Shown: one piece after another, positions 20,739 through 29,291 of the stretch
Position numbering within the stretch: the stretch's first letter is position 1
How the letters are laid out: every line of letters begins with the position of its first letter
Origin: Escherichia coli
GTDB taxonomy: Bacteria > Pseudomonadota > Gammaproteobacteria > Enterobacterales > Enterobacteriaceae
Assembly: GCF_024223415.1 (NCBI RefSeq)
Contig: NZ_CP100501.1
Direction: 5' to 3' (one strand)
DNA: 64,000 bases
The notes under the pieces: generated by a model
Databases searched by the model: none
The model's input: the letters and a program-made list of their open reading frames with translations, nothing else
Told to the model about the DNA's origin: nothing
Program-made: the position numbers and the translations under genes

Positions 20739-21008
20739 GTAAGGGGTATTTGTTAAAAATCAGCACTATCCCTGCCAAATAGGATGATTAATATCACAAT
20801 ATATCGACAATTTTTTTAATATTAAACAAATAAACATTTGAAAAAAGTTGTTTATGAATGTCATAGATTGATATAAATCACATTTTTCATAACAACATTT
20901 AGACACCTCAAAAATATTCGCTCCTGTAAAACAACTTTTTTTTCTGTTGTGGGTCACCTTTATATTGAATACTCGTCACCAGTAAACAATATATACTGGA
21001 GATTTGTC

Positions 21009-21677
21009 ATGACGATATCCATTTTTCAGGCTCAACCCTTTGAATTACCCTTTGATCCGTGCACAACGGCACTGATCATGATAGACATGCAACGTGATTT
21101 TGTCGAAGCAGGAGGGTTTGGAGAAGCATTGGGTAATGATGTTTCACTGGTTCGCACGGCTATCGCACCATGTAAAGAAGTTCTGGCAGCCGCACGTCAA
21201 AAAGGAATTATGGTTATTCATACCCGTGAAGGCCATCGTGAAGACTTAAGCGACTGCCCATCAGCCAAACTGACGCGCGGCGGAAAAACCTTTATTGGTG
21301 AACCAGGACCGATGGGACGCATTCTGGTCAGGGGTGAGGCAGGTCATGACATCATTCCTGAACTGTATCCGGTGACAGGCGAACCTGTGATTGATAAACC
21401 CGGTAAAGGCGCTTTTTATCAAACCGACTTACATCTGATTTTGCAAAAGCGTGGTATCAAGACACTTATTGTTTGTGGCGTGACTACCGAAGTTTGCGTA
21501 ACCACCACCGTGCGTGAAGCAAATGACCGTGGCTATGAATGCATCATACCGGAAGATTGCGTTGGCTCCTATTTCCCGGAATTCCAGAAATACGCCCTTG
21601 AGATGATCAAAGCACAAGGTGCCATTTTCGGTTGGGTTACTGATTCCAAAGCCATTATTGCAGGTCTGGAAGGCTAA
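21009..21677 (+). CDS. Isochorismatase-family cysteine hydrolase
   Basis: ALIMIDMQRDF motif with catalytic Asp, VCGVTTEVCV with catalytic Cys. Confidence 0.75.
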   Translation: MTISIFQAQPFELPFDPCTTALIMIDMQRDFVEAGGFGEALGNDVSLVRTAIAPCKEVLAAARQKGIMVIHTREGHREDLSDCPSAKLTRGGKTFIGEPGPMGRILVRGEAGHDIIPELYPVTGEPVIDKPGKGAFYQTDLHLILQKRGIKTLIVCGVTTEVCVTTTVREANDRGYECIIPEDCVGSYFPEFQKYALEMIKAQGAIFGWVTDSKAIIAGLEG

Positions 21678-21682
21678 CGCCG

Positions 21683-22543
21683 ATGGTACAGGTTACGCTT
21701 TGTGCATCGTCGTTGGGATATCTTTTCCCGCAGAATGAAACGCAAGATTTACGTCTACATAGCGCTTTTAAACATGCGGTAAATCTGTATTCAGACGCGG
21801 GAACATTCATCACTCTGTTGTGTGCGCAAACGTATCTGAATCTCCCTGATGCTGCCAGAGTCTGGCTACCTGAATGTTGGGACTGGCGAAGAGAGATTGC
21901 CCATTCAGATCCCATTCAATTAACCCCAGGCTTACTGCGGACACCTCGATTTTGTGTGGCGCTCGATAACGCAACGCTCTGGCAGTCGCCATTTGTGGGG
22001 GGAATGCTGACTCTTGAGGCATTGCCTTTGGTTTTCCAGCACTACCCCACGATAGCATCGCAACGGCTTTTATTTTGTCTGGAGCATAACGTTCAAAGCA
22101 CATTGCACCTGCCGGATAGTCTCACGCACCAGGGATTAGATATTATGGAACATCCAGATGCGCTGGAACGCCAGGTACCCCAACTGATCGGCTTTGGTAA
22201 AGGCTTAACGCCCGATGGAGATGACTATTTGCTGGGCTATCTGGCAGCCCTCTGGTTATGGCAACTCCCTGCACCACTTGCCAATCATCAATACAGGTTG
22301 CAGAAGGCAATTGAACAACATGCACACAACACCACGGATATAAGTCGTCATTATCTGCAACGTGCGCTTCAGGGACATTTTTCAGAACCGATTTGCCGGT
22401 TACTCGCACAACTGGTTGGGAGCGCATCGGCAATGACAATCGCATCCTGTACAGAACAGATCATGCAATTTGGCGCAACATCAGGAGTAAATTGCCTTGC
22501 AGGAATGCTGCATGGATTTCGAACCCTGAACACCATGAATTGA
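21683..22543 (+). CDS. YahE-like protein of unknown function
   Basis: 286 aa, positioned immediately upstream of FdrA/YahF-like gene as in the E. coli yahEFG-yahI cluster. Confidence 0.5.
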   Translation: MVQVTLCASSLGYLFPQNETQDLRLHSAFKHAVNLYSDAGTFITLLCAQTYLNLPDAARVWLPECWDWRREIAHSDPIQLTPGLLRTPRFCVALDNATLWQSPFVGGMLTLEALPLVFQHYPTIASQRLLFCLEHNVQSTLHLPDSLTHQGLDIMEHPDALERQVPQLIGFGKGLTPDGDDYLLGYLAALWLWQLPAPLANHQYRLQKAIEQHAHNTTDISRHYLQRALQGHFSEPICRLLAQLVGSASAMTIASCTEQIMQFGATSGVNCLAGMLHGFRTLNTMN

Positions 22544-22637
22544 TTTCAACCTTTTCTCCCGTAGCCCGTTTATGGGGCTACACGGGGATGCTTTGCCCGA
22601 ATTTTGCTATCGGGCGGAATGGAACAGGCGTAACAGC

Positions 22638-26973: not shown

Positions 26974-26998
26974 CGCGCATTTATAAAGGGAACATACT

Positions 26999-28222
26999 AT
27001 GCGTAAAAAAGAAGAGAATCTGAATACGGCATCAGGATTGCGTATTGCCATGATTTTGCTGGGTATTGCCGTCACACCTGTGCTGTTGTCATCTTCAAGC
27101 CTCGGCAATCAACTTTCCAGCAGCAGTTTAATTAGCGTCGTATTGTTAGGCGGCGTCATTCTGACCTTACTTTCAGCCATCACCATTAGCGTGGGAGAAA
27201 AAGCCCGCCTGCCAACGTATGGCATTGTGAAATATTCGTTTGGCGAAAAAGGGGCCATCGCCATTAACATTTTGATGGCGATAAGTCTGTTCGGCTGGAT
27301 TGCCGTTACCGCCAATATGTTTGGTCATTCGGTACATGACTTACTGGCTCAACATGGACTGGAAGTTCCACTGGCACTGTTAGTGGCGGCTGGCTGTGTC
27401 ATTTTTGTCGCCTCTACGGCATTTGGCTTTACCGTTCTGGGAAAAATTGCCCAGGTTGCCGTGCCGGTTATCGCGCTGGTGCTGTGTTACATCCTCTATG
27501 TGGCAACCCATACCGAAGTGGCAGTACCAGCGGCGATTGTGGAGATGAATACAGGTGTCGCCGTTTCCACCGTTGTTGGCACCATTATTGTGCTGGTTGC
27601 CACACTGCCTGATTTCGGTAGTTTTGTGCATAACCGCAAACATGCGCTGATTGCCGCAGGCGTGACGTTTCTGGTTGCCTACCCTCTGCTCTACTGGGCG
27701 GGTGCAACGCCGAGTGCCATTAGCGGCCAGGGCTCTTTACTGAATGCTATGGCAGTATTCGGTGCGGTTATGCCTGCAGCACTGTTGCTGATATTCGCCT
27801 GCGTCACCGGTAATGCGGGCAATATGTTCCAGGGGACGTTGGTAGTTTCCACACTGCTTAGCCGCTTTCCCAAATGGCAGATTACCGTTGCGCTGGGTAT
27901 CCTTTCCGCCATCGTAGGCAGTATGGATATTATGGCGTGGTTTATTCCGTTTCTGCTGTTCCTGGGTATCGCGACTCCCCCAGTTGCCGGAATTTATATC
28001 GCTGACTTTTTCCTTTATCGCCGTAATGGCTATCAAGAGTCGGTGTTAACTCAGGAGTCACAGGTTAAAGTACTGACATTCGCTGCATGGATCACAGGCA
28101 CAGCGGTTGGCTTTATGACCGTAAAAGGCTTATTCACCCTGACGACGATCCCTTCAGTTGACTCCATTCTGGTGGCATGTATCGCGTATGCGATTCTCAG
28201 TCGGGCAAGTCAACACCGCTAA
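26999..28222 (+). CDS. NCS1-type nucleobase/cytosine permease-like transporter
   Basis: 407 aa, about 12 predicted hydrophobic helices. Confidence 0.6.
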   Translation: MRKKEENLNTASGLRIAMILLGIAVTPVLLSSSSLGNQLSSSSLISVVLLGGVILTLLSAITISVGEKARLPTYGIVKYSFGEKGAIAINILMAISLFGWIAVTANMFGHSVHDLLAQHGLEVPLALLVAAGCVIFVASTAFGFTVLGKIAQVAVPVIALVLCYILYVATHTEVAVPAAIVEMNTGVAVSTVVGTIIVLVATLPDFGSFVHNRKHALIAAGVTFLVAYPLLYWAGATPSAISGQGSLLNAMAVFGAVMPAALLLIFACVTGNAGNMFQGTLVVSTLLSRFPKWQITVALGILSAIVGSMDIMAWFIPFLLFLGIATPPVAGIYIADFFLYRRNGYQESVLTQESQVKVLTFAAWITGTAVGFMTVKGLFTLTTIPSVDSILVACIAYAILSRASQHR

Positions 28223-28299
28223 TTCCTGGGTATACTCAGGCAATGATTACGGCTGAATCTGGAGAGATTCAGCCACTTTACCACTGACCAGGGAGCCTT

Positions 28300-29189
28300 A
28301 TGTTCATCTCAGACGAAACGATTCGAATTATTCATCTGGTCGCCAGACACCAGAACATCACCACCGCAGCCGAACAGTTAAATAAAGTCCCTTCTACTAT
28401 CAGTTACACCCTGAAGAAAGCGGAAGAAACCCTGGGCGTTGAACTGTTCATTCGTAAGGGACGATATATTGAATTATCTCCGGCGGGGAGTTACTTCATC
28501 GAACATAGCAAAAATATTCTCCGCGATCTGGATGCATTAAAGCGCAACACAGTGCTGATTCACGATGGTATTGAGCGTGAACTGACAATTGCGGTGAACA
28601 ATATTATACCTGGTGATTTTCTGGTGTCATTTATTCAAGATTTTGAACGGCAATTCACATCAACAACACTGACGGTAGATATTGAAGTATACAACGGCTG
28701 CTGGGATGCGCTGTACAGTAAACGTGCTGATCTGGTCTACGGTGCTCCTCATGCAGTACCAAGCAGTGAAGGCATCATTAGCGAACCGGTCGGACAAATA
28801 GAATGGGATTTTGTCGTCAGCCCACTTCATCCACTGGCAGTGAAGCGGAATCCATTAGAAAACAGTGAATTGCGTCATTATCCTGCGGTTTGTATCCGGG
28901 ATACCTCCGTTAACTTCCCCCCAATGCAAGCCTGTTGTTGGAAGGACAAAAACCTATTTTTGTTCCTGACTTCGCCATGGCAATCAGCTTAATAGAACAA
29001 AACGTCGGTATTGGTTATATTCCACATCATCTGGCATTGCCGTTATTGAACAGAGGTAAATTGCTTAAAAAGCCAATGCGCGAACATAAACACGCCACCA
29101 AGTTATTTCTTGCCGCTCGTTCCGATGGTATAGGAAAAGCCTGTCTGTGGTGCATGTCGTATTTAAGAAATAAGCAATTCATGGCGTAA
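28300..29189 (+). pseudogene. LysR-type transcriptional regulator, frameshifted
   Basis: HTH N-terminus (IIHLVARHQNITTAAEQLNKVPSTISYTLKK); frame changes near a C6 run about 28917-28922; C-terminal part continues in ORF 28935-29189. Confidence 0.7.
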
Positions 29190-29291
29190 TACCATCAATA
29201 CAGTGATATTGCCAGGCTCTTCCAGCGTTATACTGAATGCAATGATCCGAAAGGATGATGAATGGATTGATTCATACCACAAGTTTTCATT

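Follow-up and report, generated by a model that had tools for sequence, protein, structure and literature searches.

Oxamic transcarbamylase (AllFGH, EC 2.1.3.5), made up of the proteins FdrA, YlbE and YlbF, interconverts oxalurate plus inorganic phosphate and oxamate plus carbamoyl phosphate and requires all three of its subunits (2024; PMC11326118), and YbcF/AllK is a catabolic carbamate kinase (2022; PMC9843812); together they serve the oxamate branch of anaerobic allantoin catabolism in Escherichia coli K-12. Triuret is degraded in Herbaspirillum sp. BH-1 by the TrtA-TrtB-BiuH-AtzF pathway, whose first enzyme, TrtA, shares its product 1-carboxybiuret with the cyanuric acid hydrolase AtzD, i.e., the triuret and cyanuric acid pathways converge on this compound, which decarboxylates spontaneously with a half-life of ~20 min (PMC7948467). 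The operon described here lies within positions 20950-29190 of a 64,000-nucleotide stretch (hereafter the window) of E. coli contig NZ_CP100501.1 (assembly GCF_024223415.1), and encodes an isochorismatase-like hydrolase, AllH-, AllF- and AllG-like proteins, a carbamate kinase, a GGCT-fold/AH_C protein, an NCS1 permease and a LysR-type regulator. The genes that an initial annotation, made from the letters of the window, had named in this interval are all there, on the + strand, and NCBIfam, Pfam and PDB searches bear out their families. Its remark that no pathway was established for the related fdrA-ylbEF-ybcF cluster is outdated, as the work on AllFGH and AllK just cited makes clear.

Judging from homology, the operon very probably degrades an acyl-urea via carbamoyl phosphate with a gain of ATP. 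A more specific mechanism, in which triuret would be converted to carboxybiuret, then to carbamoyl phosphate and finally yield ATP, is given a probability of roughly one half; we infer each of its substrates and reactions from sequence and by analogy with AllFGH-AllK. The initial annotation had proposed ATP-yielding ureido catabolism carried as plasmid cargo: the core of that proposal is supported, and the substrate that it left open narrows to triuret/cyanuric acid/carboxybiuret chemistry.

All eight genes (Table 1), with start sites as RefSeq annotates them on the near-identical plasmid pGF60-A, are co-directional, with intergenic gaps of 5-94 nt and two overlapping junctions of 4 and 8 nt, and therefore form one operon; through these overlaps the AllF, AllG, AllH and carbamate kinase homologues appear to be translationally coupled. 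A locus scan using one genome per species and anchored on the AllH-like protein returned 80 loci, 28 of which carry the hydrolase (75-95% identity), AllH, AllF, AllG, carbamate kinase, AH_C and NCS1 genes together (one of the 28 is a 2.7-kb contig ending in the AllF-like gene, where only the first three genes are visible). These 28 loci span at least seven proteobacterial orders, with members in Enterobacterales, Burkholderiales, Dyella, Silvimonas, Photobacterium, Motilimonas and Pseudovibrio. In Silvimonas, Caballeronia and Vibrio, the Pfam families follow each other as Isochorismatase, AllH, AllF, AllG, AA_kinase, AH_C and Transp_cyt_pur, with LysR alongside, and Pseudovibrio keeps all the genes but in a rearranged order. 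Loci with more distant AllF/AllG proteins (45% identity or less) are without the hydrolase, AH_C and NCS1 partners. Clustering of the open reading frames (ORFs) flanking the module loci revealed no further family common across genera, just genus-specific synteny, and therefore the imported compound would need only the cassette's own enzymes. In the window the seven structural genes are intact, and the ratio of nonsynonymous to synonymous substitution rates (dN/dS) between plasmid-type and chromosomal-type copies is 0.06-0.21 for each of them, which indicates purifying selection on all seven; the gene order conserved in distant taxa, these ratios and the intact genes therefore place the module far beyond chance ORFs. 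The genomic-context comparison that the initial annotation had suggested as a check has in this way been carried out, and it brought to light both the 28 conserved loci and a sister cassette built around AtzD. By the sequence comparisons made here, the TrtA-state hydrolase, the conservation of the module across 28 loci and the AtzD sister cassette with its nested AllG are the new elements.

The first enzyme had been called 'amidohydrolase-type' in the title of the initial annotation, a label that does not hold, and isochorismatase-family in its text, which does: the enzyme belongs to the isochorismatase-like cysteine hydrolases, within the BiuH/TrtA clade. Its PDB matches are led by TrtA (6XIX, E 2e-79) and BiuH (6AZO, 3e-71), with RutB far behind at 1e-30. 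It is 58.2% identical to TrtA and 54.0% to BiuH, which are themselves 46.7% identical, and therefore represents a lineage of its own; the BiuH equivalog NF050097 is its best NCBIfam match, yet at 279.8 the score falls short of the cut-off of 370. In an alignment to 6XIX/6XJ4 the hydrolase retains the triad D24/K129/C162 together with the binding residues E72/K132/Q202, and so do 118 of 118 homologues. Six positions separate more than 500 TrtA and BiuH sequences, with F35, N41, A134, E160, Y187 and I205 in TrtA (PMC7948467). The hydrolase is in the TrtA state at all six, and so are all 118 homologues at or above 78% identity; the same six residues are found in the 25 aligned hydrolases from module loci, a single one of which is without the D24 column only. 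At these positions BiuH (6AZO) has Y, Y, S, D, T and V, as have the BiuH-type proteins encoded near the allFGHK genes of Nitrospira. The hydrolase is thus predicted, from its residues, to be a triuret hydrolase.

Enterobacteriaceae, Silvimonas, Dyella, Caballeronia, Vibrio, Photobacterium, Shewanella, Avibacterium and Psychrobacter have hydrolase homologues of 78-86% identity. Constraint is uneven within this one operon, the hydrolase being 78-86% identical across Gamma-, Beta- and Alphaproteobacteria and its AllH partner just 28-57%. The module shares with the Herbaspirillum pathway the first-enzyme family, the specificity signature and the predicted first product. In contrast with that pathway it has no BiuH, TrtB or AtzF amidase, it is predicted to proceed downstream by ATP-yielding phosphorolysis and not by hydrolysis, its hydrolase (58% to TrtA) belongs to its own highly conserved lineage, and its hosts are enteric, marine and soil Proteobacteria, while those of the TrtA pathway are mainly plant-associated. 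In line with this, neither a second isochorismatase-like hydrolase (IHL) nor an amidase was found in the 28 module loci, and the co-occurrence with biuH/atzF of the described TrtA pathway was not seen there. A more distant relative, 58% identical, is found in Tissierella creatinophila, a creatinine-fermenting anaerobe (locus L051, 7643-13840), with a TrtA-like signature save for H160 and F187. It adjoins a distant AllF (38%) and AllG (50%), two unannotated ~510-aa proteins and a 2-hydroxyacid dehydrogenase, and this locus possibly represents another ureide-phosphorolysis pathway.

Subunits of the AllF, AllG and AllH families are encoded together in the module (NCBIfam, Pfam and RefSeq names). 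The FdrA-like protein scores 491.6 against PRK06091 (cut-off 433) and the kinase 363.1 against TIGR00746 (cut-off 358.25) and 374.6 against PRK12352 (cut-off 266). Identity is 40/48/32/39% to K-12 AllF/G/H/K and 42/47/25/49% to K-12 YahF/G/E/I, and a neighbour-joining (NJ) tree of AllG, built without support values or bootstrap, sets the module clade apart, with K-12 AllG and YahG distant. These comparisons indicate that the operon is a third, distinct paralogous set beside AllFGHK and YahEFGI, and the low identity and separate NJ clade rule out a copy of either. The two outcomes that the initial annotation had named as fatal to it, a simple copy of a characterized pathway and a module nonfunctional throughout, both fail to apply: identity and NJ clade speak against the former, and only the regulator is broken. 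No allantoin genes are linked to the module in the 28 loci, and the Crohn's-associated strain NRG857c keeps its allFGHK operon (ylbF/arcC) beside the module.

The module has the same three-subunit architecture followed by carbamate kinase in one operon as AllFGH-AllK, and the same logic is predicted by analogy, i.e., N-acyl-urea phosphorolysis to carbamoyl phosphate and then substrate-level ATP formation. The two differ in order (AllF-AllG-AllH in the allantoin system, AllH first in the module), in context, the module not lying beside allantoin genes and bringing its own hydrolase, AH_C protein, permease and regulator, and in predicted substrate (carboxybiuret or allophanate for the module, oxalurate for AllFGH-AllK). 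The K-12 yahE-yahF-yahG-yahI-yahJ cluster has DUF2877, FdrA-like, DUF1116 and carbamate kinase genes in the order of the module, but identity is 25-49% and the clade distant; its partner is the metallo-amidohydrolase YahJ where the module has a cysteine hydrolase, and it is without an AH_C protein or NCS1 permease. More remotely, the arginine deiminase pathway (ArcA-ArcB-ArcC) follows a comparable course, with deamidation or deimination giving a ureido compound, phosphorolysis by a catabolic transcarbamylase and ATP formation by carbamate kinase. However, its transcarbamylase has the fold of the aspartate/ornithine transcarbamylase (ATCase/OTCase) family and acts on another substrate, and homology is restricted to the carbamate kinase.

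A second type of cassette bears on the substrate of the transcarbamylase. On a Klebsiella michiganensis plasmid (L035, 5987-16065), AllH/F/G, carbamate kinase and LysR homologues 34/65/79/70/66% identical to those of the module occur without the hydrolase, AH_C and NCS1 genes; upstream, on the same strand, lie genes for a cyanuric acid hydrolase AtzD (NCBIfam equivalog score 538.6, cut-off 360) and an NCS2 permease. The gene order of this AtzD-type cassette (L035; L090, 5576-16179; L092) is an unknown 412-aa protein, AtzD, NCS2 permease, AllH, AllF, AllG, carbamate kinase and LysR. E. coli drafts, with an AllH just 58% identical to that of Klebsiella, and a metagenome contig have the same arrangement, and identity to the AllH/F/G, kinase and LysR proteins of the module is overall 34-38/65-67/79/70-72/66%. 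The Klebsiella version is found on 50 PLSDB plasmids (47 at 99% identity or more) from Citrobacter, Klebsiella, Enterobacter, Leclercia, Raoultella and others, some of shower or water origin, and had no match in 5426 complete E. coli genomes. Both cassettes thus share a transcarbamylase, kinase and regulator lineage and travel as mobile plasmid cargo; the AtzD type differs in its entry enzyme, in having an NCS2 and not an NCS1 permease, in having no AH_C protein, and in the extra 412-aa protein of unknown family.

In the NJ tree the AtzD-type AllG nests within the TrtA-type clade, and the next sister group is that of comammox Nitrospira, whose loci also contain BiuH-type hydrolases. Neither cassette has a BiuH, AtzE or AtzF amidase domain. 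With a product shared by TrtA and AtzD, a nested AllG clade and no BiuH/AtzE/AtzF, the simplest reading would be that this AllFGH clade takes carboxybiuret or a direct derivative of it. The regulators of the two cassettes, 66% identical, suggest in turn a shared inducer downstream of the entry enzyme. Nitrifier contigs with allFGHK lack the carboxybiuret decarboxylase gene trtB, and their authors read allFGHK as a separate oxalurate pathway (PMC12625717); the absence of trtB also fits direct use of carboxybiuret. That study of metagenome-assembled genomes (MAGs), with its separate-pathway allFGHK, is the exception in the literature searched, where triuret or carboxybiuret was otherwise linked to no transcarbamylase or carbamate kinase. 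The AtzD cassette itself suggests ATP-yielding use of cyanuric acid by hospital and water Enterobacterales. Chlorinated isocyanurate disinfectants would be a source of cyanuric acid. In a Bacillota MAG (L077, 8865-15000), an AtzD/barbiturase-family gene (49% to the Klebsiella AtzD) has as neighbours genes for AllF- and AllG-like proteins and for a YahJ-like amidohydrolase, an arrangement that appears to link ring-opening amidohydrolases to this transcarbamylase class independently.

In the proposed pathway the NCS1 permease would import a triuret-class ureide, i.e., urea oligomers arising from uric-acid oxidation, and the TrtA-type hydrolase would remove the terminal amide of triuret to give ammonia and 1-carboxybiuret (H2N-CO-NH-CO-NH-COO-), a compound one NH apart from oxalurate (H2N-CO-NH-CO-COO-). 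The AllFGH-type transcarbamylase would then move the terminal carbamoyl group of carboxybiuret to phosphate, yielding carbamoyl phosphate and allophanate, and a second round on allophanate, an N-carboxy-urea, might yield carbamoyl phosphate and carbamate. Carbamate kinase would use carbamoyl phosphate and ADP to form ATP, NH3 and CO2, and two rounds would free all four nitrogens with up to two ATP per triuret. Phosphorolysis and carbamate kinase would thereby take the place of the hydrolytic BiuH/AtzF steps, and energy would be conserved. The LysR protein would activate the operon once an intermediate of the pathway is present, and the AH_C-like protein would handle an N-carboxylated intermediate, either as a decarboxylase or as a channelling partner for the labile carboxybiuret. 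In a variant carrying somewhat less than half the weight of this explanation, the AH_C protein would decarboxylate carboxybiuret to biuret, and the transcarbamylase would cleave biuret with phosphate to carbamoyl phosphate and urea; this would give the AH_C protein a clear decarboxylase role and leave half the nitrogen tied up as urea, E. coli being urease-negative.

The AH_C protein, the equivalent of c4763 of the uropathogenic E. coli (UPEC) strain CFT073, matches PDB 5C5Z at 128 of 129 residues and the last ~120 residues of allophanate hydrolase (AH) profiles (E 2.5e-30, positions 472-595 of 600), and its orthologues on Silvimonas, Caballeronia and Vibrio contigs carry Pfam AH_C PF21986. 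Across 28 taxa, as many as 58 of its 129 positions are near-invariant, many of them charged. It retains the GGCT-type Glu, and two His shared by the AH C-domains of K. lactis and G. bethesdensis are replaced by Leu12 and Asn19. It has no amidase-signature N-terminal domain, and there is no amidase in the operon. The N and C domains of AH catalyse sequential reactions; work by Fan and colleagues in 2013 is said to have found that the C domain decarboxylates N-carboxycarbamate, with His492 of the K. lactis enzyme (KlAH) as a catalytic residue. The protein could be a decarboxylase or a channelling partner.

Several points weigh against the triuret mechanism. The hydrolase is barely nearer to TrtA (58%) than to BiuH (54%) and forms a third lineage, ~80% conserved internally, so that it may in reality act on a different acyl-urea; the six signature residues were worked out solely to tell TrtA from BiuH, and since no single mutation interconverts the two specificities (PMC7948467), they are suggestive and no proof. 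Assays of AllFGH have so far been limited to oxamate and carbamoyl phosphate (PMC11326118), and the AllG tree has the limits stated above. The role of the AH_C protein is left unexplained by the logic of a common intermediate because the AtzD cassette does without it, and the replacement of its two AH-conserved His is a further difficulty. Finally, the frameshift in the LysR gene may leave the plasmid copy silent.

The same architecture could act on biuret or on another small acyl-urea or ureide (formylurea, acetylurea, a carboxylated ureide), with a product such as allophanate being phosphorolysed. This is unlikely, but it would account for the near-equidistance of the hydrolase from TrtA and BiuH, for BiuH being its top NCBIfam match and for the label 'biuret amidohydrolase' that JGI gives to many homologues, and conversion of biuret to allophanate and then to carbamoyl phosphate and carbamate would free all nitrogen with one hydrolase and one transcarbamylase. 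The subthreshold equivalog score and the TrtA state of all six discriminating residues count against it, as does the AtzD cassette, in which the same transcarbamylase clade works without a BiuH-type enzyme: carboxybiuret must then lead to the substrate of this clade, and this suggests that the hydrolase acts on triuret. An AllFGH-AllK isozyme fed from an oxalurate precursor (e.g., parabanate-derived) as a second oxalurate/allantoin-branch system is improbable. In its favour, this is the one activity established by experiment for the family, the regulator is similar to AllS and PunR, oxalurate is also a product of urate oxidation, and co-located allFGHK genes are assigned to oxalurate degradation in the nitrifier paper (PMC12625717); however, identity to AllFGH is just 32-48% with a separate clade, the 28 loci have no allantoin linkage, E. 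coli strains with the module retain allFGHK (e.g., NRG857c), and the transcarbamylase is always accompanied by AtzD or a hydrolase of the BiuH/TrtA clade, neither of which forms oxalurate. The chromosomal copy of the avian pathogenic E. coli (APEC) strain BEN2908, described as region 'GR29', has been guessed to serve pyrimidine degradation from weak CodB/RutB similarity (2026; PMC12928451), i.e., a cytosine/uracil-type island with CodB-like uptake, RutB-like ureidoacrylate hydrolysis and carbamate handling. This is very improbable: the best UniProt matches are CodB at 26.5% and RutB at 31.8% (PMC12928451), and weak NCBIfam matches to both exist, but the scores are 116.9 against 377.95 for RutB and 146.7 against 326 for CodB, the PDB matches to the TrtA/BiuH clade beat RutB (1e-79 versus 1e-30), and the 28 loci contain no RutA, other rut gene or ring-opening enzyme. 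The NCBIfam scores thus rule out the Rut pathway. Urease-independent urea use via allophanate, proposed for c4763 on structural grounds, is more improbable still: c4763 does resemble the C-domain of allophanate hydrolase, and the role is stated in a citing paper, but no locus has a urea carboxylase (biotin enzyme) or an amidase-signature N-domain, and the conserved His residues of the AH C-domain are replaced. Urea amidolyase-type urea use is ruled out by the lack of carboxylase and amidase.

A different kind of doubt concerns the plasmid copy in the window, which may be a decaying passenger, unexpressed with its activator frameshifted and hitch-hiking between insertion sequence (IS) elements on a virulence plasmid. 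Such a reading is doubtful, even if it retains a real share of the probability. The frameshifted regulator noted in the initial annotation is genuine in this sequence: compared with the intact genes of pGF60-A (296 aa) and of the BL21 chromosome (298 aa), the gene has lost one G after ~28933, which breaks it into two ORFs (28300-28992 and 28935-29189), and a true mutation and a sequencing error are here indistinguishable. The frameshift is restricted to the copy in the window, and IS3 and IS66 elements and a relaxase fragment bracket the cassette, as expected for a passenger; a single-base indel, however, may be a sequencing error, and all seven structural genes are undamaged and the same as in other plasmid copies, five of them encoding proteins 100% identical to those of pGF60-A. 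The operon is in fact the same base for base as in pGF60-A with two exceptions, the LysR deletion and the tract 26807-27691, which has 85 differences from pGF60-A and none from the BL21 chromosomal allele. This tract is a clean gene-conversion patch between chromosomal and plasmid copies, and its chromosomal type implies that a chromosomal copy once co-resided with the plasmid. Since LysR is intact in every chromosomal example examined and could act in trans, expression of the plasmid copy probably depends on the chromosomal regulator. None of the plasmids among the matches listed (PLSDB and complete E. coli) is more than ~99.0% identical to the window over the module.

The module, described as plasmid-borne in the initial annotation, is indeed so here, but it is not specific to plasmids. 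In its flanks the window matches conjugative plasmids of the ColV/APEC type, with a raffinose/sucrose-type cluster upstream and the Tsh autotransporter and iron-transport genes downstream, and the module is carried by 81 PLSDB plasmids, all predicted to be conjugative, including pAPEC-O2-ColV (NC_007675). It is enriched on poultry-associated plasmids (28 of the 60 sources listed for the 81, against 14 human and 4 swine). Among 5426 complete E. coli genomes, 1559 (~29%) have the module, and 1501 of the places are chromosomal, at ~95.5% identity. The chromosomal site lies between ysgA and metE in the BL21-derived NEBExpress and in NRG857c, and K-12 is without the module; it is also present in chromosomes of phylogroup B2 and extraintestinal pathogenic E. 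coli (ExPEC). In NRG857c the operon occupies NC_017634.1 4044658-4052854 (L009, 14658-22854).

Parts of this island have surfaced before. c4763 was picked out as UPEC-specific, and its crystal structure 5C5Z was published without a function. A transposon screen lists 'carbamate kinase NRG857_19070' among the in-vivo gut fitness genes of adherent-invasive E. coli (AIEC), read there as arginine/pyrimidine synthesis. In NRG857c the old tag 01850 corresponds to RS01885 at 0.41 Mb, and the module kinase RS19505 is the sole carbamate kinase in range; by this tag offset, NRG857_19070 is probably the module kinase. Birds excrete urate. Reaction of urate with peroxynitrite gives triuret, with cyanuric acid also detected, and both rise in lipopolysaccharide-treated human blood; triuret further occurs in human urine under oxidative stress (PMC7948467). 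The presence of the module in ExPEC/AIEC chromosomes and on poultry plasmids fits, without proving, a niche of urate oxidation, because birds excrete urate and triuret and cyanuric acid increase in inflammation. Tentatively, and with odds clearly against it, FdrA/DUF1116/DUF2877 proteins could be general N-acyl-urea phosphorylases with the module clade as a carboxybiuret (and allophanate) transcarbamylase, such that ExPEC, APEC, AIEC and E. coli B would harvest triuret for nitrogen and ATP anaerobically in the gut or urinary tract, and hospital-plumbing Enterobacterales would do likewise with cyanuric acid through AtzD. The literature search found no Biolog-type E. coli nitrogen-source data for biuret, parabanic acid or alloxan.

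If the triuret mechanism is true, it would give a function to an ~8-kb 'uropathogen-specific' island present in ~29% of complete E. coli genomes, in BL21 and on ColV plasmids, and explain c4763/5C5Z. It would also introduce a new enzyme activity, the phosphorolytic cleavage of carboxybiuret/allophanate, and with it a third, energy-conserving route of triuret/cyanuric acid mineralisation beside BiuH/AtzF and AtzEG/AtzH, extending the AllFGH class past oxalurate and offering a handle on the orphan yahEFG cluster. Bacterial nitrogen and energy metabolism would be tied to the non-enzymatic products of urate oxidation in inflammation or bird excreta, and under the broader N-acyl-urea phosphorylase reading the operon would contribute to fitness inside the host, in connection with inflammation and with uricotelic (bird) hosts. 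There would be relevance for the bioremediation of cyanuric acid and biuret, and a background pathway to consider when BiuH, TrtA or AtzD is expressed in BL21. Should the triuret prediction fail, the operon would still be a well-conserved orphan ureide pathway.

Table 1. Coordinates of the operon, its borders and the converted tract in the window.
Feature	Position	Strand	Basis
136-nt direct repeat, left copy	20603-20738		Repeat search
Upstream non-coding region, presumed promoter/operator	20751-21008	+	Similarity to chromosomal spacer; promoter inferred
BiuH/TrtA-clade isochorismatase-like cysteine hydrolase (predicted triuret hydrolase)	21009-21677	+	PDB and NCBIfam matches
AllH-like (DUF2877) subunit of a predicted three-subunit transcarbamylase	21683-22543	+	Pfam AllH PF11392, E 3e-26
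AllF-like subunit (FdrA family, succinyl-CoA-synthetase-alpha-like)	22638-24197	+	NCBIfam PRK06091; Pfam CoA_binding and Ligase_CoA
AllG-like (DUF1116) subunit	24194-25618	+	RefSeq DUF1116 on a 100%-identical protein; orthologues Pfam AllG PF06545
Carbamate kinase	25611-26567	+	NCBIfam TIGR00746 arcC, PRK12352
129-aa GGCT-fold/AH_C protein (c4763 of UPEC CFT073)	26584-26973	+	PDB 5C5Z; allophanate hydrolase profiles
Gene-conversion tract, chromosomal type	26807-27691	+	Covers the AH_C gene in its 3' half and the permease gene in its 5' 60%
NCS1 permease, CodB-like, not CodB equivalog	26999-28222	+	NCBIfam PRK11017 below cut-off; orthologues Pfam Transp_cyt_pur
LysR-type regulator (PunR/AllS-like), frameshifted	28300-29189	+	NCBIfam matches below cut-off; alignment to intact copies
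136-nt direct repeat, right copy	29291-29426		Repeat search

The assignments of the last two genes stay at family level. The permease scores 146.7 against the cytosine permease PRK11017 (cut-off 326), and is placed in the NCS1 family only; the regulator matches PunR best (209.7 bits), followed by AllS (151 bits), both under their cut-offs. The region before the hydrolase gene is 67% identical across 227 nt to the chromosomal spacer between ysgA and the hydrolase gene. Its 258 nt contain no convincing + strand sigma-70 promoter, and a scan for promoters and terminators was not enriched over shuffled sequences; an Rfam scan of 20400-29700, with E up to 0.1, found no RNA family, the 136-nt repeat included.

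The 136-nt repeats, 98% identical, 8688 nt apart and unannotated, bracket the whole cassette. The repeat is found at 248 plasmid places versus 21 chromosomal ones, mostly as two per module-bearing plasmid and almost confined to these, and could be a relic of cassette capture or a substrate for excision or duplication. Immediately upstream of the cassette lie an IS3-family element with a programmed frameshift (18862-20074) and a 5'-truncated NikB relaxase fragment (20116-20550). Just outside the right repeat, a low-GC gene (29605-30012) with a signal-peptide-like N-terminus is annotated as cytochrome b562 on related plasmids, and further downstream an IS66-family element (30352-32685) takes the place of an IS3-family element in pGF60-A. 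The plasmid-borne sugar cluster at ~1600-18800 encodes an alpha-galactosidase, a GH32 glycoside hydrolase, a carbohydrate porin, a major facilitator superfamily (MFS) transporter and an aminoimidazole riboside kinase, and is also found on plasmids of poultry E. coli and Salmonella.

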